A stretch of 55,758 nucleotides of DNA, the filler included, from Sphacelaria rigidula (lineage: Eukaryota): the NCBI GenBank assembly GCA_964200075.2. It is 4 parts of 4 records of this genome, joined end to end, with 100 filler letters (N's around TTAATTAATTAA, not from the genome) between each part and the next. Parts side by side here need not be neighbours in the genome. Positions count along the whole stretch, not along the records: positions 13,967 to 27,832 come from CAXNAA020002625.1; 3 more parts are not named here. The stretch is one strand, 5' to 3'. Shown here piece after piece: positions 13,867-41,897 of this stretch. How positions within the stretch are numbered: position 1 is the stretch's first letter; each line of letters begins with the position of its first letter. Both the position numbers and the translations under genes were made by a program. The notes beneath the pieces are model-generated. The model was not told the DNA's origin, ran no database searches, and saw only the letters and a program-made list of their open reading frames with translations.

Positions 13867-13966
13867 NNNNNNNNNNNNNNNNNNNNNNNNNNNNNNNNNN
13901 NNNNNNNNNNTTAATTAATTAANNNNNNNNNNNNNNNNNNNNNNNNNNNNNNNNNNNNNNNNNNNN
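13867..13966. other. Assembly gap pad (44 N + TTAATTAATTAA + 44 N)
   Basis: Identical 100-nt construct at three positions. Confidence 0.97.
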
Positions 13967-14221
13967 ATTGACCACACATCCCTTTCGAGACGGAGCAGCA
14001 GGGGGGGGGGGGAGGGGGGGCATAGGGTTAGTGCTAAGGTTTAGGGTGATCATGCTCGGTTTACCTTGGAAAAGGGGTAAGAACAAACGCGGTGGTATGA
14101 CCCATGTCTTTGCGACAAAGCGGTTGACAGGCTTCCCAGCTTGTTGGATAATTTTGACTTGTGACCCTAGCTTCGTTATATTTTCGTTCCTCGGACGGCA
14201 AACGGACCTCGACACGTGCAG

Positions 14222-15339
14222 AATCCCTATTACATGGTAGAGTTCAAGCCGGCACTCGGATGGATCTTCCGACACTATCTGAAAAAGTACTCTCACTGGG
14301 CCTATGGAGATCTCGACGTGTTCTTCGGAGATCTGACGAAGGGCTGGCTCGAGCCGGAGGAGATGCGAGATTACGACATCGTCACATACAGGTACTCGTG
14401 TGAAATGTAAACTCAACACGTATTGCTTGTGTCCGGTCCAGTCTTGTGTAAGTCCTGCGGGTGAAATGATGCGTGTGTACTTCTCGTTTTCCTTGTTGTG
14501 TGTCCGAGCACGGCAGTACCGCCTGCGTGCTGATCCATTCACCTTGCACGGTTTGTGTGTGATTACTGGACTGCGGCAGCTTCGGGGATCAGCATCGTGC
14601 TTACCTTCGAGGTCAGCTGACGGTGCACAAGAGCATCCCTAAGGTCAACGACGTGTGGAGGCACTGCCACCACCTGTCGGACTACTTGTACCGCATCGAT
14701 GTAAGTTGTGTGTGGTGTTACACTGGGTATCGACACAGAGAGGTACCGTGTCGTGTTTGATGCATTAAAGGTAACACTCGCAGCTTCTGACACGGTAGCT
14801 GCCGTTGCTATGCATCATGGAGCACCACTACAGTGGGCTAAGTTACCCCCGATGCTGGAGCTTAGTCCTGTTCCCCGGGAAAATGACATGTGGGTTCAGA
14901 CCTCAAGGGGAATGAATCGCACTCCGCATCAAACATGCGTATGCAGTTGACCCTGAAGGGCCTTTTGAAAGCACGCGTCTTGAGTTTTCTTGTGCGTCCT
15001 TGTAATAGTGATGTGCGGTTGTGAAATGTGACGGACGATGCTGGCGCTGCCTCCGTTCACGTGCCCTTTTCAATTTAATCTGTCTCTGCTGCTCTTTGTG
15101 ACGGTGATGCTGGGTGCTGCTTTGTGTCCAGAGAACGAGAGTAACCAAGCGATACACCTTGGAGAGCGCAGAGGGATGCTACAGCGCGGCCCTTATGTTC
15201 TCCAGCGATATCAAGGCTAAATACGCCGTCAGGGTGCGAACATTGCGATTACGTAGTGTCACGATCACCGACCGTTCACATCACTTTCGTGTCATTGCTC
15301 TGCACTCTCTGAATTCTTTCGCCAGCCCATTCACGCGGC

Positions 15340-15379
<40 letters not shown>

Positions 15380-18300
15380 TCGCCTCATGTGTTCTGCACG
15401 CCGGGCTACACCATTCGGTATATGTGGGCGCACTAGCCGGGGTCACACACGAGAAAGGTCAACACAGGAGCTTTTTGTTTTTTTGTTTTTGTTTTAGTAT
15501 TCCACCTTCCTTCTGCGGTGCTTGCGTTTTATTTTTTTCGTGAGAGGGGTCCAGCAGTCCCTTTCCCTCGTTGAGCGTGAAGTCGAATTTTGTGTACCCA
15601 CGACATTGTCGCTCTCCGCTGTTGGGCATGTGTGTGTTGTCTCACTGTTGGGCATGGTGTGAGAAAAACACCCAGATCGCTCCGAGATTCGAACCCACGA
15701 TCCAACCGTCAAAAGGTTTCGAGGTTACCAACTGAGCCACCGAGGCGACCGGCCTTAGGGGGGTGGCGGCGGTATATGATAGTTCAAGGGAGATAAAGGG
15801 TTAGACCGGAGCACGACGTGGAGCGGTTGGAGATATCCGTACGCCCGACCCGCATGTGACAGATGGAGGGGGCCAAGTAGAATGGCTCGTGTCGTGAGCT
15901 ATTTGGCAGAGCTGCGGTGCGTCCTCCTGTCCATCTTGGCGTTTCATCCAATCCAGCTGGCTCATCTCGTTTTCCACCCCGTTTTATGGTCACAGGTTTT
16001 CACAGACATGCCCGGAGGCGGCTTTCAGGGGAACGAGATCGATGTCGTCATCACGGGTGACGCTCTCATCAAGAAATGCCCATCTGTCAAGAACCGAATA
16101 GGAGAAGAGGGCGGACCGCTGGCGTCCATGCCTCAGATGCAGGTGAGAGCCACTCTCATTATTTGGCGAACACTGCACCAGCTAGTTTGGCGCGTGCGGA
16201 GGAGGCATATCTGCATGGCGAGTACACTGTTCTGCCCGTCAAGGGGGTCCCGTGCTGCCGAAAATTATCGTCCGTGAATGCTACCTTTCTTGTCGTCATC
16301 TTTGGCCCACTGACTGGAGGGAGTGTCGACACCTGCTTCCGGTTGTGTATGCGGCCGAGCTTGGGGTACACGCACGCTGATGAAGTTTCCCGTGATTTTT
16401 ATTCGTCTTGTCCCTCACGCAGCACTGTGACGTACAGCCGTCATGTTAACTGTTCACCTTGTTATTTATGTTGAGAAATGCCTGCCTGTCTTATGCTGAT
16501 CCTGAAGCCAAAGGAGAGTTCGACTGTGACTGAACATTGTGCTGCGTTGTCGACCGCTACAAGCTGGTGCGCTGTCTTGTTCTCGGCATACTGGTGTTGC
16601 TTGTGTTCTGTTGGCATGGCGTGGCAGGTGGACGTGGGCAAGTTCGTCCTTGTACAACCCGCGGTGGAAGGCACGCACTGTGAGTACTGGATCAATGACA
16701 GGTTCCAGACGTGCCTCGACCTTGTGCTTGATAAGGAATCCAGCAACGTGTACCTCATAAACGGACAGTACTATCAGCGAGGTGAGCGCACTTTTTTCCT
16801 GTCACGCTTTTAACCCCCCCCGGGATGCGTGATCAACGGTCAAACGACTCAGGCAAGCAAAAAATGAGTACACCCCCCTTCCCCTTCCTGCTCCTTCCTC
16901 TCGTCGGGACGAATCCGTGGTCTCAATAGGTCAACTCACCTCTCCCCCAGTGTACGCCTTGCATTTTGGTACGACGAATTTCGTTTCTGTACGCGAAGGT
17001 AGAAGCTAGTCTTCCCAGCTTGTCCACCGGGAGGACTGCTTGTTTAATGAAGTCCTTGTTCTTGTATCCCGGTGTGGTGTCAAAAACCTCAGACGGAAGG
17101 CAAAGACCACATTGTGCTGCACTTCAGCATGATCCCGTTGTTTTAGGATCAGATTACCGATCAATCAGATCAATCAAATCATACATCGTTGCACCCGCTC
17201 AAGTGTTTATCCTGCTTTTAGGAATGGCGTGATCATCGTTGTTGCTGCCGCTCACCAGTGTGTCTGTTATTTTACTCGGGCAACGCATGCAGGGTTTACC
17301 AACTTGTGGAAGGGCGTCGTGGAGGAGGGCTGCGGAATGGGAGCTTTCCACCACTTCCAGGCAAGTGTTGACTATTTGTGCGCGCCGTCATCGACCGTTT
17401 GTGTGCTCAGTATTTGCGTCTGTTTTTGTTGTTGCGCCTCGTCACCTGCTTGACCGGCTGTCACTCCAATTTTTTTAATTCTGTTCTGGGCGTACAACAC
17501 AGTAGTTGCAATGTGAGGACTAATGTCGAGAGGAAAAAAGCTCGTGGTCGTGGGTGGTTGGGCCTACGAGTATAGGCCGTGTGTTGTCGAGACCGCAACA
17601 ATAATAAGATGAAGCGGGAAAAGGAGCAAGCGTTCAAAAGCTGCATGTTGATTGATTGCTGGGCGGGTCTATGGTCGCGGCGACCAATTAACATGATCAT
17701 GATGCTTTTGGGCGCTTGTTTCCTTTCCCGCTTTTTTTTATTCCTCATTGCCTCCATAGAGATATAGCCTTACGCCAACCGGTGTGGGATGGCGCGTATT
17801 TTTCCAACTGGCCACCGCTTCTTCCCAAAGTGTTTTGTGGTACTGCAAAACCGCAGAATGCAGGCCGCGATGCTTTTACCGACTGTGATGTCTGATGTCA
17901 CGCGGGTTTCGTCCGGTCGAAACACCAAGAGAGCAAGAAGAGCTACAACCACCGAAATACACCAAGCGTGGGAACTACCGTAATTATCTGCGCGCGTGAT
18001 ACCCCCCCCCCCACTCGCTCGGGCCCCCCGCCTGCCCGGCNNNNNNNNNNCGCCGCGCAACCACACAAGAAGCAAGAAAGACACCCACCCCCCCAAACCC
18101 CCCAGCCCGGGACACCCCCGAATTTTCTCCCCCCCCCCCCCCCCCCCCTCCCTGTGATGAAACAACGGTCTGCCTGTCGTACCACAAACTCGACCTGTTT
18201 GATTCGGTATCACAGGATTTCAAGGCTAACTTCCGACCTTGGAACACGCGCCCACCCATGCCTCCGACGCACATGGGTATGGTCGCAAGGGAGAGCGGAC

Positions 18301-21300
18301 TGGTGCCTTTGCCAAACGGAGACTGGAAGGCTATGGCAGTGGACCCCAACACCCCTCCGCCGTGGGTAAGCTAAAGTTTCGGCCATCTGCGTCGACTGCA
18401 CGTGGTACCTGCTGAATCGAAGTGTTGAAGTTTTTGTTCGTAATCTTCTGAGGCATGTCTTGTACCAGAGGTGGTCGTTCGTCTTTCTCAAGAATCAATT
18501 CATGATGCCTTCGCGCTCGCTCTGCACGCACCACGTGACGTGACATGTCTTTCTTTCAGTTCCTTCCGCTACTTCTAAAGCGCAACAAGCCGTGCGCCGC
18601 AAACTGTACACTGTAACCTGCGCTAAACTTATCCGCCGTTGCCCGTTCGCGTGCCGTCGCTGCAAGTAATGTACACGCAGCTTTTGTTCCGCATCTCTTG
18701 TTGATCCATGTCCACTTGTTGCTGCTGCCTCAATCGATGCCCCGCTTACCACTACTCTCTCATATACTGGACATTCACGTTTGGCCACTTATGTCGACGC
18801 TGGCGGGCGGGGCGGGAATTGTTTATCTCAGAACCGGGACCGGTTCACCCACCGGTACTGCATGGAGTGGTCCGTGGATGTGGACAAGGAGAAGAACGCG
18901 TACTCGTGCTTGGTGAGCGTAACCGCCACGGACGCTCTTAGGCCTATGTACGACTCTCGGACGGATGAAGCGAAACGACTCGGCGGGGTAGATGCCGTGA
19001 CTCTAGGCGGAGTGGGGAGCGTAAAGCACTTAGATGGATTGCTGCACAGCATGAGGGAGTGGACGGGTCCCAAGGTGTGTTGTGTTGAAACAGGAATTCT
19101 GACTCGCTTAGGATAGCGTCACGCTCTCTCTGTGCTCTTCATACATTTTATTTAATCGTGTGGGCATGCTCACGTCTTTTTTGCAAAAGCGTCGGGCTGA
19201 GGATCACAATACCATGTTGCCTCTAATAACCCCGTAGGAACTCGCAAACATCAGTACAAACTCCCATATGCGAGCTTCCGTCACTAGGAAAACGTCACTT
19301 GGAGTTCGGTGCACGAATCTGTCACATTAGTGTACTTGAACTGGGAGTGGCGCACCGTTTGGGTGGGCTAAAACGTCAACAGCTGCAGAAGAACAACCAT
19401 ATCTTGTCCAAGGAAACGTCACTTGTAAATCGCCATTTTTCCATCAACTGTCCCAAGAGGGTCAAGTACGTACCGTTTACAGTAGTTACTCGATTATCAA
19501 TCCACTAGAGAAGGTAGCTCAAAATTCAAAAGCAGGTTGAATAGCTGCGGGAAAACTCAAATCCAGAAGAGAGCAGGTTTGCGGCTACCCTCATGCGCAC
19601 CCGTCCGTTCATGATGTTTAGGTTGCTGTAATGTATTGTTTCAGGGCATGATAATTGGGATGTATCGCTCCTCCATAGTCGTAGTTGGACGTGTTGTGTT
19701 GCGGTAAAGCTGACCTCGTTGTGTCGGCCGTTTTTGTTCAGATTATCGTGCTGATTATGAGCGTAGACGATACCAAGAGTGTATGGACTAAGCTACACAA
19801 GGAGGAGAAAGCCGCGGATAGCTGTGGCATGGAGAACGCTCTCGTGATGGCTTTCCTAGTACCCAAGGATGACGAGAACATGCAGGGCAGCAGCCAACAG
19901 CCCCTGGGACTGGAAATGCCCATCAAGTCTCTGCTCAATGCGCTCAACGATTTGTGCCAGACGAGGTGTGGTCTAGCTACCCGTGGTTGGATAGATATCC
20001 CGCCTGTGAGTAAGCTAATATTCGTTATGCTGATCCATACTGCTGCACTGTGCTCTACCGTGCGTGACAACGTTCGCCGGGTAGCAAGATATTTGAGGAG
20101 TATGTTGTCTGGAGTAATGAGCTTATCACGTAGGCTGGCAGTCGATGGAAGTGGTGAAAACGATACGTGAAGTTGGAAGCCAAATGCCATGCCTCCAGCT
20201 TCCTTGTTCAAGCATGTTTGACAGTGCATGCTATTTGATCGTCTTTCATGATGTCCCCTTGATTCCCCTCCCCATTCAGACTCTTGTGTGGACAGTGCTT
20301 CGTTCGTGTTCCGCGCGCTGCAACCAAAGCATGACTAACTTCCGTGTCCAGCGTGATCGAAGTACGCAGCCTTTGGTTTGAGCGCCGAACACCCCCCCCC
20401 CCCCCTCCACCCCTCCACCCCTTCATGTACGTGCGTTCGTCCACAGACACCTCCTAACCCTGTCGCCTGGCTTCAGGATAGGGCGAGGTACCGAGAAAGT
20501 GGTAAACGATGCCGTCCGAACTCCCTCGTTGAAGCCAAGGGTATTGGTCATCCCGCAGTGGTGTATCGACGGCTCCCCCGATCCCTGGGTAGTGCCTTCG
20601 CTGGACGTGCAAGACGCGAAGACGCTGGCCATGGAAGGGACGGCGGGACTCTGTCAAGCACGAGCGACGGACCAAAAAGGAGCGCCCGACAATTCGTGGC
20701 TTGGTTCGTCGGCCAACGACGCAGTCGAGAATGGAGAGACAAACGGGGCAGTGTTGAGAAACGGGCGGTCGCTTCTAAGATCGGACGTCGTAAGCCCGAT
20801 ATTAGTGGTGGATCTGTGGTCGGCGCCCGCGTTATTCTTGCGGTATGTTGAGGTGAGTGACTGCTTACGCGAGACGGTGGTAAAAGGAATGGATGGGTCA
20901 TGAGGTGCTTCTGGGTGTTTCGTGTGTCCCCGGCTTTCGGAGCAGGGGCGGGGGCGGAGCAGCCTTGTGACATGGAGGTCGGTACAAGTGTGCGTGAACA
21001 CCATTCGGTGAGAGGGGTGGATGTGCTGTCAAGAGTTGAGAGCCGTGTACTACTGCTTTTATCACGTGGAAGGAACACGCTGATTGCTCAATATTCGTCC
21101 ATTTTGCCGTGGCCGAGCGCCGTCTTTTATTTGTCAGTTTACATCCCATGCTCCGCGCGAATATTAGGACTTACTTCCCACATATGGGGGTAACTCAAAG
21201 CGAATTGAATATTTTCGCGCGAAGTGCGATTTTGGCCGAGCGTCTACAATCGGCACCTAGCAAAATCTGAGGCCCCCTTCAAAATTGAGGGAGTAACTAA

Positions 21301-23707
21301 TGTAAGGAACATGTCCTGTTTCACTGTGCTGCAGCACAAACACACTCATGCCCTCTCTCATGCGCTGTAGCTGTCACTGTGCTGTGGTGTGTTTGAACCG
21401 TCGCAACGACGGTGGGACTGCCTGAGTTTTTTTATTGTCGTTGTGTTTGTTTTCATAGAAAATAATGATTCTATGCTTTCGTTTTTCGCTGTGCTGTTGT
21501 GCATTTAAACGCTCTACAAACACGGTGTAAAGTGCGGTGGAGAGTGCCTTCACAGCTACCCTGGTGCCGTGTTTGAGTCTGTACAGGATTGGGGTGCGAC
21601 CAAAGTGCCGTCTATACAAAGTTGAAAAAATCACGTGATAGCTGTACAGCTGTTCGTTGTGTGTTCTTTGATACTTCAATTGTACTTGGGTTCTGTGATC
21701 GGGTAAGACACGCAAGGCAGTTGCGTGCAGGTTGGGGCAAACAAACTTCGCCAGCACGGACTGCTTTATCCTTGATGGTCGCAGCTGTCTGTCTCGCAGC
21801 GGCGCAGCGTGGGGGTTAATCGGAGTCATTTTGTAACTTATATACATCTCACAGCTCTCATGTGATTCGCGGAAGGCCCCCGCATGTTCGTGGTTTGGAA
21901 TGCTCTGATAAGTCCAAAAATGTGAGTCATATTTTTTGCCTCGGATCTGTGGGAGGTATGCCAACATTTGATGTACTTCGGTCCCCTGCAGGAGTTCACG
22001 CGACCGCGATGTTTCGACGGAGCGTACGCACGGGGGCTGTGGTCAGCGGGGTTTGCTTTCGAGATGTTGCCCGGTGCCCTCGCGTTCGCTGTACGATCGG
22101 AAGTGCCGTCCAAAAGCTTGGGCTGCCGATCGGGGGCGCTGCTTCCAGCGAGGAGCTATACGCTGTTCCTCAAGGTACTGTAGTTGGTCTGCATGGTGTT
22201 TCTTCGAGCTCGGTCCTCTTGCTGGACTGATCCGAGGCATGGTGCGCGCATGCATGCGTGCGTGCGTGCTGTCTTTCCCTCAACATTCGATTGCTTTTGT
22301 GGGAGTTGTTGACGCGATACTTGAAGCAGCTGGATCGGTCTTGCGCAGCTCGTGTCTGACAGGGCGATGTAGCATTTGCTTGTCTTCGTCATCAATGCAC
22401 ATGATGAGTTTCAAAGAGTCCCCAAGCTCGCCTGAAGCAAGCTCTGTGCGGAGGTGCAAAGGCAAAAGTTGAGTATGACTTACCTCCCCGTTGAACGTAC
22501 GTTTGAGTGTTAATCAACCCCTCTTGTCTCTCAGGCATTCCCTGGAATGACCTCTTCCCCCCCCCCCCCGCCCCCCTCCATGGTGACTGGTAATCGATTG
22601 CAAGTCTAGTCCGGCGAAATTCCGGCGTGCTCCGTCCCGGCTTTGTAGGGATGCGCGGTAAATGGTCATATGACTACGGCGTGCAAGATAATGAGTACAC
22701 CCCTCCCACTACCTTTTGAGGACTAGCGTCGGTTGGCAACCACGCTGTAAAACAGTCACCCGCTGCGTAAGCTAGGTGACCGGGTTACCCTTTGTTGGAG
22801 AACCTAAACTTCGTGTAAAGAGGATGATCGTACTACGTAGTGTTCACGTGGTCAGTCATCCATGAGGCAGTGTGGAACCCGTGGCTGCCTCTGGAATGGA
22901 CGACGGTACCAGAAAATGAAGGACCTCGTTGTAGGCTGTCATCCATTCGCAAGATAATCAGTACGCTTCAGATCGAAAATCTTGGTGAGATACAGCTCAC
23001 CCTTCATGCGACTCGCCGAGCACATCATGGCCCTTCGCGCTTGGTTATTGCGAGCGTTTGGATTGATTGAGTGATTGTCGCACTTTCACTGACCCCCCCA
23101 GGGGTCCACCCGTGGTCTCGTGATAGACATGCCCTAAAAGAACAAAAGTGAAACACTTGCTGAGCGTGGTCCGGCGAAAACTCGGCGTGCTCCGTCCCGG
23201 TTTTGTAGGGGTGCGAGGTCAGGTGATGTCATGACTACAACATGCAAGGCCATGAGTCCCCCCCCCCCCCCCTCTCCCCCTCCAAGTCAGTACTTGGAGT
23301 CAAGTCGTGTCCTGTACTTGCGGAGGGTGTGTGACCTCCCCCCTCTATTCGCGTGCCCTCGTCGACGCACACAGTCCATCCGGGAGGTGTACTCCAACAC
23401 TCGCTCCCGAAACAACATCACCATGGATCAGCTGAGGCTTATGGACCATCGATTAGGCTTTGCGACAGGGCCCTCCGAGGCAGGGGAGCCGGACACAGTC
23501 TCGAAAAAACAGAAGCGCCAGGTGTACAAGAAGGGCTTCCGCAGTCGCGACGGCATACCGGAAGAGCAGCAGAAAGTTGCGCAGGCCCTGGCAGAACAGC
23601 GACGGCGTCCACCGGGGGTTGAATCCATGCTGGCCGAACGGAGGGGTCGAGAACCAAAGGGGAAGTTGAAACAGAAGCCGCCAGATACAGAAGCCGTTGA
23701 GGGTTAG
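14222..23707 (+). CDS. Spliced gene (5'-partial): putative two-domain glycosyltransferase, DUF6625-like domain plus divergent GT49/LARGE-type domain
   Basis: Phase-consistent exons 14222-14391, 14580-14700, 15132-15233, 15996-16142, 16628-16781, 17293-17360 (GC donor), 18216-18365, 18832-19074, 19742-19965, 20447-20852, 21992-22174, 23375-23707 (TAG). 'EFKPALGWIFRHYLKKYSHWAYGDLDVFFGDL' matches the DUF6625-type motif as I recall it. 'VTL...WTGP...MPIKSLLNAL...TRHLL...VLVIPQW...SPILVV...RYVEEF...GFAFEMLPGAL' follows the GT49 motif order. The start is probably lost in the gap at 13867-13966. Confidence 0.8.
15342..15752 (-). mobile_element. tRNA-derived SINE, type A, intronic, with expanded (CA)n tail
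   Basis: Same A/B boxes and body as 36140-36490; (GT)n tract at 15342-15378. Confidence 0.88.
22606..23260 (+). repeat. Two direct copies of a ~95-bp repeat in the last intron of gene 2 (22606-22705, 23168-23260)
   Basis: gtccggcgaaa..cggcgtgctccgtcccgg.tttgtaggg.tgcg...atgactac...tgcaag...atgagt in both copies. Confidence 0.8.
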
Positions 23708-25141
23708 ATAGCTTTTCCTGATATTCCGTTTTAAACTGGTTCGTCCGCGTGGGTGCGTGGGTGGGAATGGCTGTGTCTGTGGTGTATGCATGTGTGTATA
23801 TTTGTGTTGATGTTGGTGTTTCTGCTGATGGTGGTGCTTGTGCTTGTGCTTGTGTCAGTACGTGTTCTGTGTTTTCGCATGGTGTAACGGCAGTGCGTGG
23901 AGGGAAGTTCCAGACCGACGTGGCGGGTACATGGTTGCAGTGATGGCCACATTGCATCGTACCGCTCGATGTCTGTGCGATTTGCCGTTTCAGCCTTGAG
24001 ACGGAGGGCCGTACACCAGGAACGAAAAGTGCGTTGTGCAGCGATATATTCGCGTCCAAAAGGAGAGAAAGCGCAGGCCAACTCGAAGATATCGGTCTGC
24101 GCTCTTGATACTCGTGGACAAGCCACCACTCACGAGCAAGCAGTACGTCATACTCCGAGCCGTGTTGTGCGTGGTGGTTGAAATCATATAAATGCGGACG
24201 TCATGATATTCGTTTTCTGTGGTGCTTTCAACCCGGATTTGTATGTTTTGGAAGTTTTCTGTTGCTGCCCTAGCTGTTCTGTACTGTAGAATATCCGATG
24301 CGCGAGTCATTGCCCTTGGGGGATGAACTTTTCCATAATCGAACTCCTGCCGTTTTTTATTTTCTCTTGCGTTTATGACATCCCTTAGTCGTGGAGTGCT
24401 TGCCTGAACACGATCCCTTGATCAAATGTCGGTGCGGTCGTATGTGGCGAATAGTTGGCCCAAGTTCCCACAGCCGTTTCGCACCCCTGGGCACCGACGC
24501 CAACTTCTCTTCGAAGCGAGTCGCATTCAACATTCATGAAGCGCGTGGGTGTTGCGAATCATCAGCGGTTGTGAAAGGAAGTCGTTCTGAAGAGGCACGT
24601 TGTCATACCTGGGCTGGGGTCCCCGGGACTAAGATCACGGTCACTCACACCATGTTCATGCCAAGTACTGGAGTACGATTAGGCAGTGAGTTCGAAAAGT
24701 GGCCGTGGTTGCGCAAACTCCCCTTCTGTTCTGGTGCAGGCCTGCTTTTTCTTTCATCATTATGTATTGCTGTACACTACACCACGCAAAAGCTGCTATA
24801 GCAGTGTTTGTTTTTCATGATTGCGGAGATCATCGATCTCGGCGTGCATTCGGCCTTCGCGTATTTTTCAGGGTACTGGAGTCGAGTCGTATGCAGTTTG
24901 TGTTTGTGTTCCTCCGATCCATATGGGTTGAAAGCAAAATCCTGGGGCTATTTTCGGTCCAGGCAGTCGTTGAGTTGGTTGGGTGGGCTTTAGTGCAGAA
25001 ATGAACGGGTATGGGTGAAATTTGCACTCCTTTTACGTGACGTGATTTCTCCCAGCTGTTTGGTGGTGGTGGGGGGGGGGGCTATTCTCGCTGCGCGACC
25101 TCGGTCTCCATGGTGACGTTTTGTTAAATGTTTCAAGGGCA

Positions 25142-25321
25142 GGCCGAGTAGAGTATACCCAATTGCGGGGTATTTTGAAAGACGTACTTGGGGTACTCAA
25201 GTTAGGGTAGAGTATTGGGAGTCGTACCCAAAAAAATGCTGGGAAGCGATTCCTGGAATTCTACCCCCAATTTGTGTGCGACTTTCAAGATACCCCGCAA
25301 TTGAGTATACTCTACTCGACC
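25142..25321. mobile_element. 180-bp MITE with about 40-bp TIRs
   Basis: GGCCGAGTAGAGTATACCCAATTGCGGGGTATTTTGAAAG versus the reverse complement of the right end GGTCGAGTAGAGTATACTCAATTGCGGGGTATCTTGAAAG; TSD unclear. Confidence 0.82.
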
Positions 25322-27832
25322 GGAATGTTTCGCTATTTCACTGACATCGCATGAGTGCGGAAGGGTCGTATGTTCTCTCGCTCTTCCGGCATGTGTTTCT
25401 TCTTGAAACGTGTAGTGTGAGTTTCCCGATCTGTAGCGCGGTAACTATGAACGTGGCTACCCGTGATGCCGACGTTGTATGTTCGTTTTTTTACTGCATT
25501 ATGTGTGTTCAGCTTCGTTCAGTTTGTGGTTGCAATGGTTGACTGTGCTGGTCAAGTCGCAGCTGTTCCGGCTGCCTTTTAGTAGCAGGTCAGATTGATG
25601 TATGAATACACTTTTATCCAGCATCTCCCTGTCTAGCCGTGTATTGTCTACTATATATTCCCCGGGAAAGCTTCCCTGTGTTTTCTTCAGCTGGGGTCGT
25701 TGATTATTCTGATTATTCGTCGGCTCCTGTTGTTGATTGAATTGTTGAATCACTCTTCCCTCGTTCCGGGACTGGCTTGGAATTTCCCTGCTCGGAAAAC
25801 CATTGTGCTGACAGGGGTATCGGGGTTATTTTGTGCATGTATCGTGCGTCGTGAAGGCCGACCTGGAAATAAACGCGGGTCGTTATTGAAACCCCACGTC
25901 GGCACGAGAGGAGGCGTTTCGAGGTTTTCGGCCCGGAATGGCAAGAACGTATATTCTGGCGGCAGGCAGCGGCTTGTGTTGCTCTTGGATTACAGCATTT
26001 GCGCGCAGTGCTCAGCCGTGGGATGTTTCACATTGGGATCATTCTCTAGACGAAAGCACGCATCTCCGGTAGCAAACGCTCACCTATGGTGGTCACCGTT
26101 GGGCTCGTTTTTTTTTTTGTATTGCAGTGGCTGGGCTGCAGTTGTAGGCGGTGTGTCTGGGGACGTGAGTGTATGTCGAGCTAAGTATGATTGCCTTCGT
26201 AAGTATATGTATGCGTGCTTGCGCTTATTGCTTCAACTGTAGCAAGCTGCTACTTTAGGTAAATAGCAGCACTAGATGCAGTATGTCACGAGGTGGGGGT
26301 GGAACGTTTTTGCCGGCAATTTTGTCACCGGGGGACGACAAATCACAATACAGCTGGTGTGTACATTGTGTTCGGTTATATATTGTGAGTCGGGTTGGTT
26401 GTTAAAAATGGAATTTTCCAAGCCACCCAACCTATAGTTCATTGAATACAGAGCGTGAGACACCTGGAGTGAGTGTAAGCTCGCTCACGCTCTATATTCT
26501 GTCACCTATCATTATACCTCAAGCCGACTCGGGTTTCTGTTGGGTTTCTGTCGCATGAAGGACGCCTTGGTGTTGAAGTACCCGCTCCTGCAGCAATCAG
26601 TGTTGTCTGTATTTTCGCCCGGTGAGGTGCTCTCGAAATAAAGTCAGTGATGTGTAGGATAACATGCCGCACGAAAAAGACGACGTTCCAGCAATCGTGC
26701 ACCAACCAATATTTTCATATCGATATTTGAGCAGATCCAGACAACGTTGCATGATGCTTCCACTCGCATCATAATGTGACACGCACATCATGAGACTCCT
26801 CACTGATTCCAAGGAAGTAAACAGCTGTACGCCGTGTTGCGGCAGAAAAACAGAACGGCTTGTTGATCACCAGCATGATGACATGCCTTCCCAACCTATT
26901 CCAGTTGGTTCTAAACCCCAATACACCGATGAATCATCACCCCCCCCCGATGCAACCGACAAGACTCAACCGACAGAGAATACGCCGAAGGTAGAAACAA
27001 CACATGCTGGGTGATTCTTCTTGTCTAATTCCAGTAGTCAACAGCAACGCGCTTGCGGCTTGACTGGCGGGGTAATTCTATCACGTGATACTTGATATAC
27101 TTTTTCATCCCCCTGAGAGTCGAGATAAACCTACTGTGCGGCTACAGAGTGCTCTACGCGCAGGATGCGCCACGGGTCGGCCGCCCGACAACACGCTGCT
27201 TGCTCCCGGTTACACGAGTAACACTGCGGCCAGAAACCGTTCGGGAGGATACCCTGGAAGTCGCCCCGCTCCATGATTTCCCCTCATCATGCAGGAATGA
27301 ATCGATACCCGGATCACCACCGATTTCATGGGCGGCAAGCGGCGCCCGCGGTTGGGACCGGCTGCTTCGAGAGCGAGCATCGTCGGGGGTCAGTGGTGGT
27401 GTCTTTTTTGTTGTACCGCCATCAGTTCGGCTGCTGTGGTTTAGTAGCTTAGTGAGCTGTGGTGGCCACGGTTGACGGATCGTGGCATTGAGTCGTTGCT
27501 GGCCTGGTAGGGTTTTCATTGGGGACTCTGTTGCTCCCCTGCGTTCTTGGCCAAGCGTGTTGAATTTTTTGCTAACTCTTGTGCCATTGTCCTTGTGCAA
27601 ACTTGGTAGATGGGTCGAGGAGGGAGCTTGGCGACCGGGGCTGGTACAATCTGAAGAGAGAGAGATGGGGGTTATCAGTTCGCAACGCCATCGCGAGGAA
27701 GGTATACGCCAAAGTTTAGGTTGGAAACACTCGGAATCATCTCATCACCATTCAAGATAAGAGCGATGCTACGGTAGGGGTGCACTTTTTTCGCGAAATT
27801 TTGTCTGGTTCAGGGGCTCCTAACGATTCTAG

Positions 27833-27932
27833 NNNNNNNNNNNNNNNNNNNNNNNNNNNNNNNNNNNNNNNNNNNNTTAATTAATTAANNNNNNNNNNNN
27901 NNNNNNNNNNNNNNNNNNNNNNNNNNNNNNNN
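27833..27932. other. Assembly gap pad
   Basis: Same 100-nt N/TTAATTAATTAA construct. Confidence 0.97.
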
Positions 27933-41797: not shown

Positions 41798-41897
41798 NNN
41801 NNNNNNNNNNNNNNNNNNNNNNNNNNNNNNNNNNNNNNNNNTTAATTAATTAANNNNNNNNNNNNNNNNNNNNNNNNNNNNNNNNNNNNNNNNNNNN
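41798..41897. other. Assembly gap pad
   Basis: Same 100-nt construct; a separate 10-N gap lies at 18041-18050. Confidence 0.97.

Follow-up and report, generated by a model that had tools for sequence, protein, structure and literature searches.

A candidate LARGE-like two-domain glycosyltransferase gene in Sphacelaria rigidula, with a DUF6625 first domain and a non-canonical GT49-like second domain

In animals, matriglycan is polymerised by LARGE1 and LARGE2, which unite a GT8 Xyl-T domain and a GT49 GlcA-T domain, and LARGE is to our knowledge the only eukaryotic co-polymerase of the matriglycan type. The chondroitin polymerase K4CP and CHSY3-CHPF likewise have a pair of GT-A domains fused in a single chain and make an alternating disaccharide, although there both domains are of the GT2/GT31/GT7 type and both carry a DxD motif. 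LARGE1 requires Mn2+, and its DXD motif is Asp563-X-Asp565, as stated in passages of PMC9746966. For most matrix glycans of brown algae and diatoms the polymerising enzymes are unknown; a passage of PMC11468063 says of the genes for sulfated glycan synthesis that they ‘remain unknown’, and another describes diatom glycans as essentially glucuronomannans. A gene from a brown alga is described here whose product, judged by the predicted structure of an orthologue, is collinear with LARGE1, and whose two domains depart from those of LARGE1 in different ways.

The window, that is, the whole stretch of 55,758 nucleotides of Sphacelaria rigidula DNA (assembly GCA_964200075.2) that was analysed, consists of four equal pieces separated by spacers of the form N44-TTAATTAATTAA-N44, and the piece with the gene begins at 13967. 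On the + strand, 12 exons between 14222 and 23707 join into a frame of 2,301 nt, or 766 codons, whose sole stop is terminal. All 12 exons are preceded by AG acceptors, and ten of the 11 donors are GT, the one GC donor (CAG/GCAAGT) being that of intron 6. The outer coordinates and the exon number exactly reproduce the 12 phase-consistent exons of the original prediction, and the motifs it had named (EFKPALGW...HWAYGDLD, FHHFQ, LSPGF and a basic tail) are all present in the translated model. Four proteins from brown algae also align collinearly with the model, covering 595-664 of its residues with an identity of 53-56%. The 5' part of the gene, comprising the membrane anchor and the start of domain 1, lies outside the piece, and because that piece begins at 13967 and the others are joined to it by spacers, the 5' exons are not recoverable from the window.

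Exon 1 of the piece (14222-14391), which is not the first exon of the gene, encodes the DUF6625 core with HWAYGDLD (GDLD at 14306-14317, D-L-D at 14309-14317), and its junction with the next exon (14391/14580) was found in RNA contigs of four out of four runs. Exon 2 (14580-14700) contains SFGDQ...LRGQLTVHK, in which the Asp of G-D-Q is invariant across a family alignment of 133 sequences. Exons 3 (15132-15233, with an ESAEGCYS motif), 4 (15996-16142, VFTDMPGG...) and 5 (16628-16781, CEYWI...QTCL) are spliced in the RNA contigs, as is exon 7 (18216-18365), which encodes the inter-domain region WNTRPPMPP...LPNGDW. The DUF6625 domain ends in exon 6 (17293-17360) with FHHFQ (17346-17360); the contigs place the joint of exons 6 and 7 at 17357/18213, which can be shifted by up to four bases and is compatible with 17360/18216. 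Exon 8 (18832-19074) encodes a Cys-containing beta-hairpin and, after it, the first strand and helix of the GT49-like domain (AVTLGG, WTGPK), and exon 9 (19742-19965) encodes strands 2 and 3 with a SLLNAL..D..QT motif. In exon 10 (20447-20852), LSPGFRIGRG comes directly behind RHLLT, the fourth strand, at the place of the GT49 DxD (LSPGF at 20460-20474); the same exon has IPQW and SPILVVDLW, the latter with a conserved Asp within 20805-20819. The C-terminal conserved block, RCFDGAYARGLWSAGFAFEMLPGALAFA, is encoded by exon 11 (21992-22174), and exon 12 (23375-23707) contributes a poorly conserved basic tail, with 24 Lys and Arg among the last 110 residues, and the stop codon.

Between the two halves, intron 6 (17361-18215) holds a 10-N assembly gap (18041-18050), and the ORF track shows short pieces only, both of which could suggest that two separate genes, or a pseudogene, have been misread as one unit; a split near 18041 was one of the outcomes that the original prediction had named as telling against it. 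The transcripts leave that reading with next to no credibility, and it was rejected. One spliced contig in each of the four runs carries all 11 junctions, including that of the intron with the gap (17360/18216), which a single contig per run bridges, and the locus is hence one gene. The frame is open across 766 codons, and in three genera the orthologue is predicted to be one undivided protein, 967-994 aa in length. The gene is thus expressed as a single transcript. The contigs that bear the junctions are 4,396-4,745 nt long and reach 659-960 nt 5' of exon 1; they also cover the 3' UTR (23708-24600) continuously and, judged by their own lengths, continue 541-589 nt past the compared 3' stretch. 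All four runs belong to one study and their RNA type is a guess, but the contigs must come from spliced RNA, since all 11 introns have been removed. The introns themselves contain some very deep segments; Rfam at its gathering thresholds and ARAGORN found nothing over 13967-27832, and for this reason the segments are regarded as unexplained repeats and not as known small RNAs.

Orthologues of about 990 aa, none of them named, occur in Ectocarpus, Pylaiella, Ascophyllum and Scytosiphon. In those of 967-994 aa a basic N-terminal tail is accompanied by a hydrophobic helix that spans roughly residues 21-41, and in the orthologue model the helix (21-41) is followed by a disordered region (42-127). 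A type II (Golgi-type) membrane topology may be inferred for the window protein from these orthologues, the anchor itself being encoded outside the piece. The wider family that combines domain 1 with a GT49-like domain gave 1,601 representative hits, among them diatom proteins of about 900 aa and several brown-algal paralogues, and at least 62 of 167 homologues carry the extra GT49-like domain beyond DUF6625. Five family members matched no NCBIfam family at E<=1, a literature search for DUF6625 or PF20330 found no paper naming the family, and a search for stramenopile Glyco_transf_49 or diatom glucuronomannan glycosyltransferases found no paper on the two-domain family.

The N-terminal half is a true member of Pfam DUF6625 (PF20330), as had been proposed. 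Exon 1 alone (ORF 14171-14407) matches the family with an E-value of 1.2e-13 and 52 bits, above the cut-off of 27 bits, and the four orthologous proteins match it at 66-81 bits (E 4e-18 to 1.5e-22). Across the 133 sequences the signature KPALG...HW.Y.D.D...GDQ..Y.RGQ is invariant or nearly so, D306 being invariant and D304 at least 90% conserved, and the D-x-D is kept in 60 of the 61 two-domain relatives, the 61st being a sequence without the N-domain. All structures considered here are predictions for the Ectocarpus orthologue (53% identity with the window protein); its whole-protein AF2 model is a confident one, with a pLDDT of 78.9 and a pTM of 0.79. In this model the N-domain forms a Rossmann-like alpha/beta/alpha sandwich with strands at 160-165, 189-195, 208-212 and 299-303, the fourth of which is followed directly by D304-L-D306, the arrangement that characterises the GT-A fold. 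Its fold neighbours in the predicted structure belong to retaining GT-A families at Z 9-10: BoGT6a (10.2), XXT1 (9.8), GTB (9.6), PBCV-1 A64R (9.6), UGGT (9.5) and LgtC (9.1). These matches cover model residues ~151-561 and were taken from the whole-protein model, and the Z values may be underestimates because the domain was folded only within the whole protein. The GT8 member LgtC fits no better than GT6 or GT34, and PF01501 (Glyco_transf_8) had no match at E<=1 on the four orthologous proteins. An Atlas search with the N-domain, PF20330 clusters excluded, returned DUF6492 (0.90, 124 shared features) and Nucleotid_trans and GT8 (0.88); these leads are weak and were given no weight. Domain 1 would accordingly be the Mn-dependent catalytic domain, using a nucleotide sugar, a proposal based on the D-x-D, which is intact behind the fourth strand, and on the likeness to retaining GT-A families.

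Taken as a whole, the model finds its best matches in LARGE1 (Foldseek 5e-13; VIA Z 23.4 with 487 residues aligned), and residues 159-952 are collinear with LARGE1 137-752, in keeping with the LARGE-like two-domain architecture that was predicted at the outset. The order of the two GT-A domains is the same, a retaining-type domain preceding one of GT49 type, and LARGE1 too has a long stem and type II membrane topology, features to which the orthologues point here. The two differ in several respects: sequence identity is just 12-16%, the relative orientation of the domains is not that of LARGE1 (rmsd ~19 A over both domains), domain 1 belongs to DUF6625 instead of Pfam Glyco_transf_8, and domain 2 both escapes PF13896 and has no DXD. 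The architecture is therefore LARGE-like, but the first of its domains is another one and the second is non-canonical.

The relation of the C-terminal half to GT49 is one of structure. Folded alone, the C-half of the Ectocarpus orthologue (pLDDT 79.0, pTM 0.82) has LARGE1 as its top five Foldseek matches (1.8e-12 to 1.3e-10; the next stands at 1.4e-6), and against 48,161 chains its best match is the LARGE1 chain 7ui6_A at 434-756, with Z 22.0, an rmsd of 3.9 A and 15% identity over 310 aligned residues, followed by TarS at Z 15.5. In language-model features, PF13896 accounts for 24 of the 30 nearest clusters, with a score of 0.94. The profile of PF13896 itself, by contrast, had no match at E<=1 on 16 ORF pieces of the window or on the four orthologous proteins, 50 long homologues likewise showed none at E<=0.01, and the C-half matches no Pfam family, Glyco_transf_49 included; the Pfam model of DUF6625 spans the first domain only. 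Queries of the PDB chain sequences with the orthologue, a 133-row profile and a 61-row profile brought up neither of LARGE1 and B4GAT1 at E<=10, a further search with the 61-row profile yielded 28 hits, none with PF13896, and a word-index search with the orthologue C-half returned only the four known orthologues. As sequence searches found neither LARGE1 nor B4GAT1, the link depends on the predicted fold. The description of the C-half as GT49-like thus stood as regards the GT-A fold, which is nearest to the GT49 domain of LARGE1, but not as regards a match to Pfam Glyco_transf_49.

It might be supposed that this likeness is convergent or generic, two unrelated GT-A domains having been fused and the C-half being a divergent GT2-like domain. 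Many GT2-type enzymes do fit the C-half at Z 13-15.5, the link to PF13896 is absent at the sequence level, and other fused enzymes with two GT-A domains (K4CP, CHSY3-CHPF, LH3) are also among the matches; K4CP and CHSY3-CHPF fit the C-half at Z 14.6-15.4, and CHSY3-CHPF fits both domains at Z 12.5. These scores are, however, well below those of LARGE1, whose GT49 domain exceeds the best GT2-type match by 6.5 Z units and by six orders of Foldseek E-value; the prevalence of PF13896 among the nearest feature clusters and the order of the C-half motifs, which agrees with that originally described, point the same way and make a generic resemblance a decidedly improbable explanation. By its predicted structure, then, domain 2 is a divergent GT-A domain whose closest solved relative, by a wide margin, is the GT49 (GlcA-T) domain of LARGE1. 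It shares fold, motif order and language-model features with Glyco_transf_49 proteins such as B4GAT1 and the LARGE C-domain, and differs from them in that it gives no HMM match, has no DxD and, behind the last conserved strand, lacks the His that GT49 has there, the family consensus reading GAFA.S. Stand-alone GT49 proteins of ~330-480 aa occur in Atlas clusters from diatoms, green algae and fungi, and the supplement of PMC11468063 lists 44 brown-algal proteins as GT49, which may or may not include the product of this gene.

At the DxD place of domain 2 the window protein reads RHLLT-LSPGFRIGRG and has no acidic pair. LSPGF had been put forward as standing where DxDF is expected, and in this protein the acidic residues are indeed missing; the equivalence is one of position after the fourth strand and of motif order, without residue-level superposition, and two alignments put the acidic pair 1-2 residues apart. 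The whole orthogroup lacks the pair: its members have PSD, PIG, AQG, PPG, PLG, PYD or PSG, followed by F/Y-R/S-I/L/V-A/S/G-R-G, as read for further orthologues in a small, patchy C-only alignment of database fragments. Among the two-domain relatives at large, for which the original prediction had left the state of the motif to be checked, 33 of 61 keep the acidic pair as E-x-E (E/D-x-E/D). Given the loss of the pair that binds the metal-nucleotide, domain 2 would not be a canonical Mn-dependent GT49 enzyme.

Some metal-independent GT-A enzymes neutralise the diphosphate by means of basic residues, and this raises the alternative that both domains are active, the protein being a bifunctional co-polymerase like LARGE1 whose GT49-like domain works without the DxD metal and uses the Arg in G-F-R-I-x-R-G instead. 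Nine of the 61 two-domain relatives, namely the window orthogroup and six more distant ones, have Arg at the first acidic position, 56 of 61 retain the Asp of SPILVVD (P0007 D860), the ALLN..D..TR block is likewise retained, the C-domain core is 46-53% identical between brown-algal orders, and the fold matches include 4ayl, a GT-A enzyme that works independently of metal. The kept Arg and the conserved Asp could possibly leave a metal-independent active site in domain 2, and the sequence features just listed are signs that constraint persists, which argues against a dead domain. On the other hand, Scytosiphon has Ser in place of the Arg, the C-domain has changed more rapidly than the N-domain, whose identity is 64-69%, and LARGE1 needs Mn2+, as stated in the passages of PMC9746966 mentioned above. 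The alternative of two active domains is for these reasons considered rather unlikely. We know of no metal-independent GT49 enzyme.

The reading that we consider probable is that this one expressed gene encodes a membrane protein of type II topology whose two GT-A domains follow the order of LARGE1, and in which domain 1 would be catalytic and domain 2 a non-catalytic or altered partner. Domain 2 might serve as a module for holding the acceptor or glycan, or for dimerisation, much as the original prediction saw in it a possible pseudo-enzyme or glycan-binding module, and domain 1, so partnered, would build an extracellular-matrix or cell-surface glycan. We infer that domain 1 is active and that domain 2 is inactive or altered in what it does, and the same applies to any substrate.

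A broader and more tentative proposal, which we regard as doubtful, is that the proteins with DUF6625 and a GT49-like domain are the stramenopile counterpart of LARGE, that is, Golgi co-polymerases of alternating alpha/beta disaccharide backbones in wall or mucilage glycans. The clade with E-x-E would have both activities, and the window orthogroup would be derived, its second site being metal-independent or regulatory. If this were so, possible products would include diatom glucuronomannans and, among the fucose-containing polysaccharides of brown algae, the fractions of glucuronomannan or xylofucoglucuronan type. The stramenopile family has the architecture of LARGE, and as a large unannotated family whose second domain is invisible to Pfam it offers a concrete set of candidates for makers of algal wall glycans. 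It also provides a natural series for how GT-A sites lose or replace their metal, with the acidic pair present in 33 of the 61 two-domain relatives and replaced in the rest, the window gene among them.

The second of the four pieces of the window (13967-27832) robustly carries one expressed gene for a LARGE-like protein with two GT-A domains, in which DUF6625 (PF20330) is followed by a divergent GT49-like domain without a DxD motif. The 5' end of the gene lies outside that piece. The window, 55,758 bases in all, is not contiguous: each piece is about 13,866 bases long, and N44-TTAATTAATTAA-N44 spacers with stops in all six frames divide one piece from the next (13867-13966, 27833-27932 and 41798-41897); the neighbourhood of features is not to be assumed across these spacers, and genes at piece ends are cut. 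A script that tested GT/GC...AG pairs at each junction for an intact frame and the greatest similarity to the orthologues placed twelve exons on the plus strand, at 14222-14391, 14580-14700, 15132-15233, 15996-16142, 16628-16781, 17293-17360, 18216-18365, 18832-19074, 19742-19965, 20447-20852, 21992-22174 and 23375-23707, the same count and outer limits (14222-23707) as in the original prediction, whose quoted reading-frame pieces are likewise present in the plus-strand stop-to-stop listing. The joined exons comprise 2,301 nt (766 codons plus a stop) with no internal stops. Brown-algal orthologue proteins used as tblastn queries gave 11 collinear blocks at 14216-22270, and over 595-664 of its residues the gene model shows 53-56% identity with four orthologues. 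A 10-N gap (18041-18050) falls within intron 6, the donor of which is GC (CAG/GCAAGT, 17360/17361), a junction confirmed by transcript contigs; the other ten introns begin with GT.

A search for sequencing runs listed eight runs from two studies, and four runs of one study (X1-X4), for which the RNA label is only a guess, were placed on 13967-24600. The fraction of sampled words present in these runs was 0.24-0.28, and the exonic share of the stretch is 0.24. In all four runs a single contig (4,396, 4,632, 4,745 and 4,706 nt) carried all 11 joints of the model, all in agreement with it when the shift given for each (0-4 bases) is allowed, and with GT..AG ends except at intron 6, where the unshifted joint reads CA..CA and a shift of 3 (4 allowed) yields the model's GC..AG. 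Since all 11 introns are removed, the contigs represent spliced RNA. The alternative that two separate genes are split near 18041 is ruled out by these four runs of one study, because in each the same contig bridges the intron with the N gap together with all other joints; the prediction of one gene holds. The contigs reach 659-960 nt 5' of 14220, corresponding to upstream exons beyond this piece, and the orthologues have about 272 residues upstream of the part covered by the window gene. The same contigs cover the 3' UTR to 24600 and, from their size, continue for 541-589 nt more; by this extrapolation the transcripts should end at about 25141-25189, at the first arm of an inverted repeat of 46 nt (25142-25187 / 25276-25321, 89% complementary, 88 nt loop). 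Five sites differ from the window in run X1 only (T>C at 15194, 16723 and 18957; C>T at 20579 and 24542), X2-X4 having the window sequence there; a strain or allele difference seems more likely than editing.

The assignment of the N-half to DUF6625 was borne out by Pfam, as the open reading frame at 14171-14407, which includes exon 1, matched this family with an E value of 1.2e-13 (52 bits, cut-off 27 bits), and four orthologue proteins matched it alone (4.4e-18 to 1.5e-22); no other family gave a convincing match among the 16 window ORF pieces scanned. In an alignment of 133 proteins W300, D306, G310, D334 and C360 (numbering of the 994-aa Ectocarpus orthologue) are invariant and D304 is present in at least 90% of rows, so that, judged from this alignment, the D-L-D singled out in the original prediction (14309-14317) is the most conserved feature of the family. 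The N-domain D-x-D is found in 60 of the 61 rows of an alignment of two-domain relatives, the sole exception lacking the N-domain altogether. An AlphaFold2 model of the 994-aa orthologue, built with the 133-row alignment (mean pLDDT 78.9, pTM 0.79), has a hydrophobic anchor helix at 21-41, disorder at 42-127 and, beyond that, two alpha/beta domains that are well modelled; within the first domain, D-L-D directly follows the strand 299-303, which is its position in GT-A folds. When model residues of about 151-561 were compared with 48,161 representative chains without a Foldseek pre-filter, the neighbours were BoGT6a (Z 10.2, rmsd 3.5 A, 198 aligned), the xyloglucan xylosyltransferase XXT1 (Z 9.8), blood-group GTB and PBCV-1 A64R (both Z 9.6), the UGGT catalytic domain (Z 9.5) and LgtC (Z 9.1), the Z values being moderate and taken from the whole-protein model. 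These neighbours all come from what we take to be retaining GT-A families (GT6, GT34, GT24 and GT8).

No sequence method used links the C-half to GT49. PF13896 (Glyco_transf_49) was absent at E<=1 from the 16 window ORF pieces and the four orthologue proteins, at E<=0.01 from 50 long homologues (49 with DUF6625 only, one with no family), and from the 28 matches of a search with the 61-row profile (27 with PF20330 only, one with none); PDB sequence searches with family queries returned neither LARGE1 nor B4GAT1 at E<=10. The GT49-like label of the original prediction thus finds no Pfam match in sequence, but it stands for the predicted fold, where LARGE1 leads by Z 22.0 to 15.5. A language-model feature search with orthologue residues 576-960 placed PF13896 in 24 of the 30 nearest clusters (top score 0.94, 206 of 256 features in common), with LARGE1 clusters at 0.90. 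With the whole model, Foldseek ranked LARGE1 entries as the best five (5.0e-13 to 3.3e-11, then 1.5e-05), and a second aligner gave LARGE1 9e1t_A (Z 23.4, 487 aligned, model 159-952 against chain 137-752), followed by single GT-A domains at Z of about 15 on model 625-973. Residues 557-980 folded alone (pLDDT 79.0, pTM 0.82) again matched five LARGE1 chains in Foldseek (1.8e-12 to 1.3e-10; next GalNAc-T2, 1.4e-06), four of them with rmsd 4.4-5.8 A over about 322 columns at 15-16% identity and the fifth, 7ui7_A, with 10.6 A over 397 columns. Over the 48,161 chains, 7ui6_A came first (Z 22.0, rmsd 3.9 A, 310 aligned, model 34-400 against chain 434-756) and TarS was next after LARGE1 (Z 15.5). As modelled, the C-half is a GT-A domain and, among solved structures, stands nearest to a GT49 domain by a wide margin, because these top matches are to the LARGE1 C-terminal domain, which is classed as GT49.

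The expected place of the DxD motif follows the fourth strand of the C-half model, RHLLI(L) at orthologue residues 725-729, after which the orthologue reads P-S-D-F-R-I-A-R-G and the window RHLLT-L-S-P-G-F-R-I-G-R-G (LSPGF at 20460-20474). Other members of the orthogroup have PIG, AQG, PPG, PLG, PYD or PSG, followed by F/Y-R/S-I/L/V-A/S/G-R-G. The consensus of the 61-row alignment is G-x-[ED]-x-[ED]-R-G, with both positions acidic in 33 rows; in the four orthogroup rows the first of these is R or S and the second A, and Arg occupies the first in 9 of the 61 rows, distant ones included. By strand position and motif order LSPGF lies where DxD is expected, as predicted, and the window protein has no acidic pair there in either possible register. 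The Asp of SPILVVD (20805-20819) is kept in 56 of 61 relatives, and the domain also retains an ALLN..D..TR block and several conserved cysteines. The window protein is 64-69% identical to the orthologues in the N-domain part versus 46-53% in the C-domain core, so the C-domain is evolving faster, not decaying.

According to PMC9746966, the LARGE1 N-terminal Xyl-T domain belongs to GT8 (retaining; Asp242-X-Asp244) and the C-terminal GlcA-T domain to GT49 (inverting; DXD Asp563-X-Asp565, Mn2+). The orthologue model has the same two-domain order, but DUF6625 stands in the place of GT8, and the divergent GT49-like domain lacks the DXD present in LARGE1. It is likely that domain 1 acts as the Mn-dependent transferase and that domain 2, which does not qualify as a canonical GT49 enzyme, has a non-catalytic or altered role. 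With an active, metal-independent site in domain 2 the protein would be a true co-polymerase; this is considered rather improbable. A type II topology with lumenal domains is predicted from the N-termini of the orthologues and the conserved cysteines. The computable parts of the original interpretation are all supported, and this tandem GT-A glycosyltransferase of the LARGE type, which belongs to an uncharacterised stramenopile family, is, as a candidate known from sequence, transcripts and predicted structures, of good interest for algal wall biosynthesis.

The orthologues are entered at NCBI as 'unnamed protein product', an old 264-aa Ectocarpus fragment (CBJ26313.1) as 'conserved unknown protein', and a full-text literature search for DUF6625 or PF20330 returned no paper. 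According to the CAZyme survey PMC11468063, GT49 is an unexpected family in brown algae; its supplementary table has 44 'GT49' brown-algal proteins, of which 32 rows give about 1-5 per species (two in Ectocarpus sp7, one in Ascophyllum, for example). With exon 1 as the query for longer proteins, 18 of 18 candidates were recovered, all with PF20330 and the named ones all brown-algal; orthologues measure 994 aa in Ectocarpus sp. 12, 992 aa in Pylaiella littoralis, 967 aa in Ascophyllum nodosum and 858 aa (partial) in Scytosiphon. The Ectocarpus orthologue, searched against the full set of 1.84 billion representative proteins, had 1,601 matches at E<=0.001, of which 447 reached E<=1e-10 and 154 reached E<=1e-30, and an iterative profile built from the orthologues recovered the C-domain in 62 of 167 collected proteins. 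The family is broad in stramenopiles and not specific to Sphacelaria rigidula, because an 896-aa DUF6625 cluster in the Atlas is commonest in diatoms, and the 61-row profile search matched a Pseudo-nitzschia protein and longer brown-algal paralogues (1,093-1,474 aa). These paralogues, P0188, P0189 and P0190 from Ectocarpus sp. 13, Scytosiphon and E. fasciculatus, show about 35% identity. Stand-alone PF13896 clusters of about 330-480 aa occur in the Atlas in diatoms, green algae and fungi.

Three segments around the gene, 13967-14321 (upstream of exon 1), 15387-15741 (intron 3) and 22487-23196 (intron 11), are very deep in X1-X4, with a summed contig depth of about 16,000-51,000 versus about 20-80 over exons, and contain many loose contig ends and odd joints. 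They resemble interspersed repeats of high copy number, transcribed elsewhere too; no Rfam family or tRNA was found at these segments. A (GT)n-type microsatellite in intron 3 (15334-15386), one frame of which reads CVCVCVCV, was skipped as a repeat when contigs were placed. Intron 11 also holds a 51-nt direct repeat (22609-22659 and 23169-23219, 88% identical, 560 nt apart), whose two copies probably represent a single short repeat element, and loose contig ends begin exactly at 22609 and at 23162-23167.
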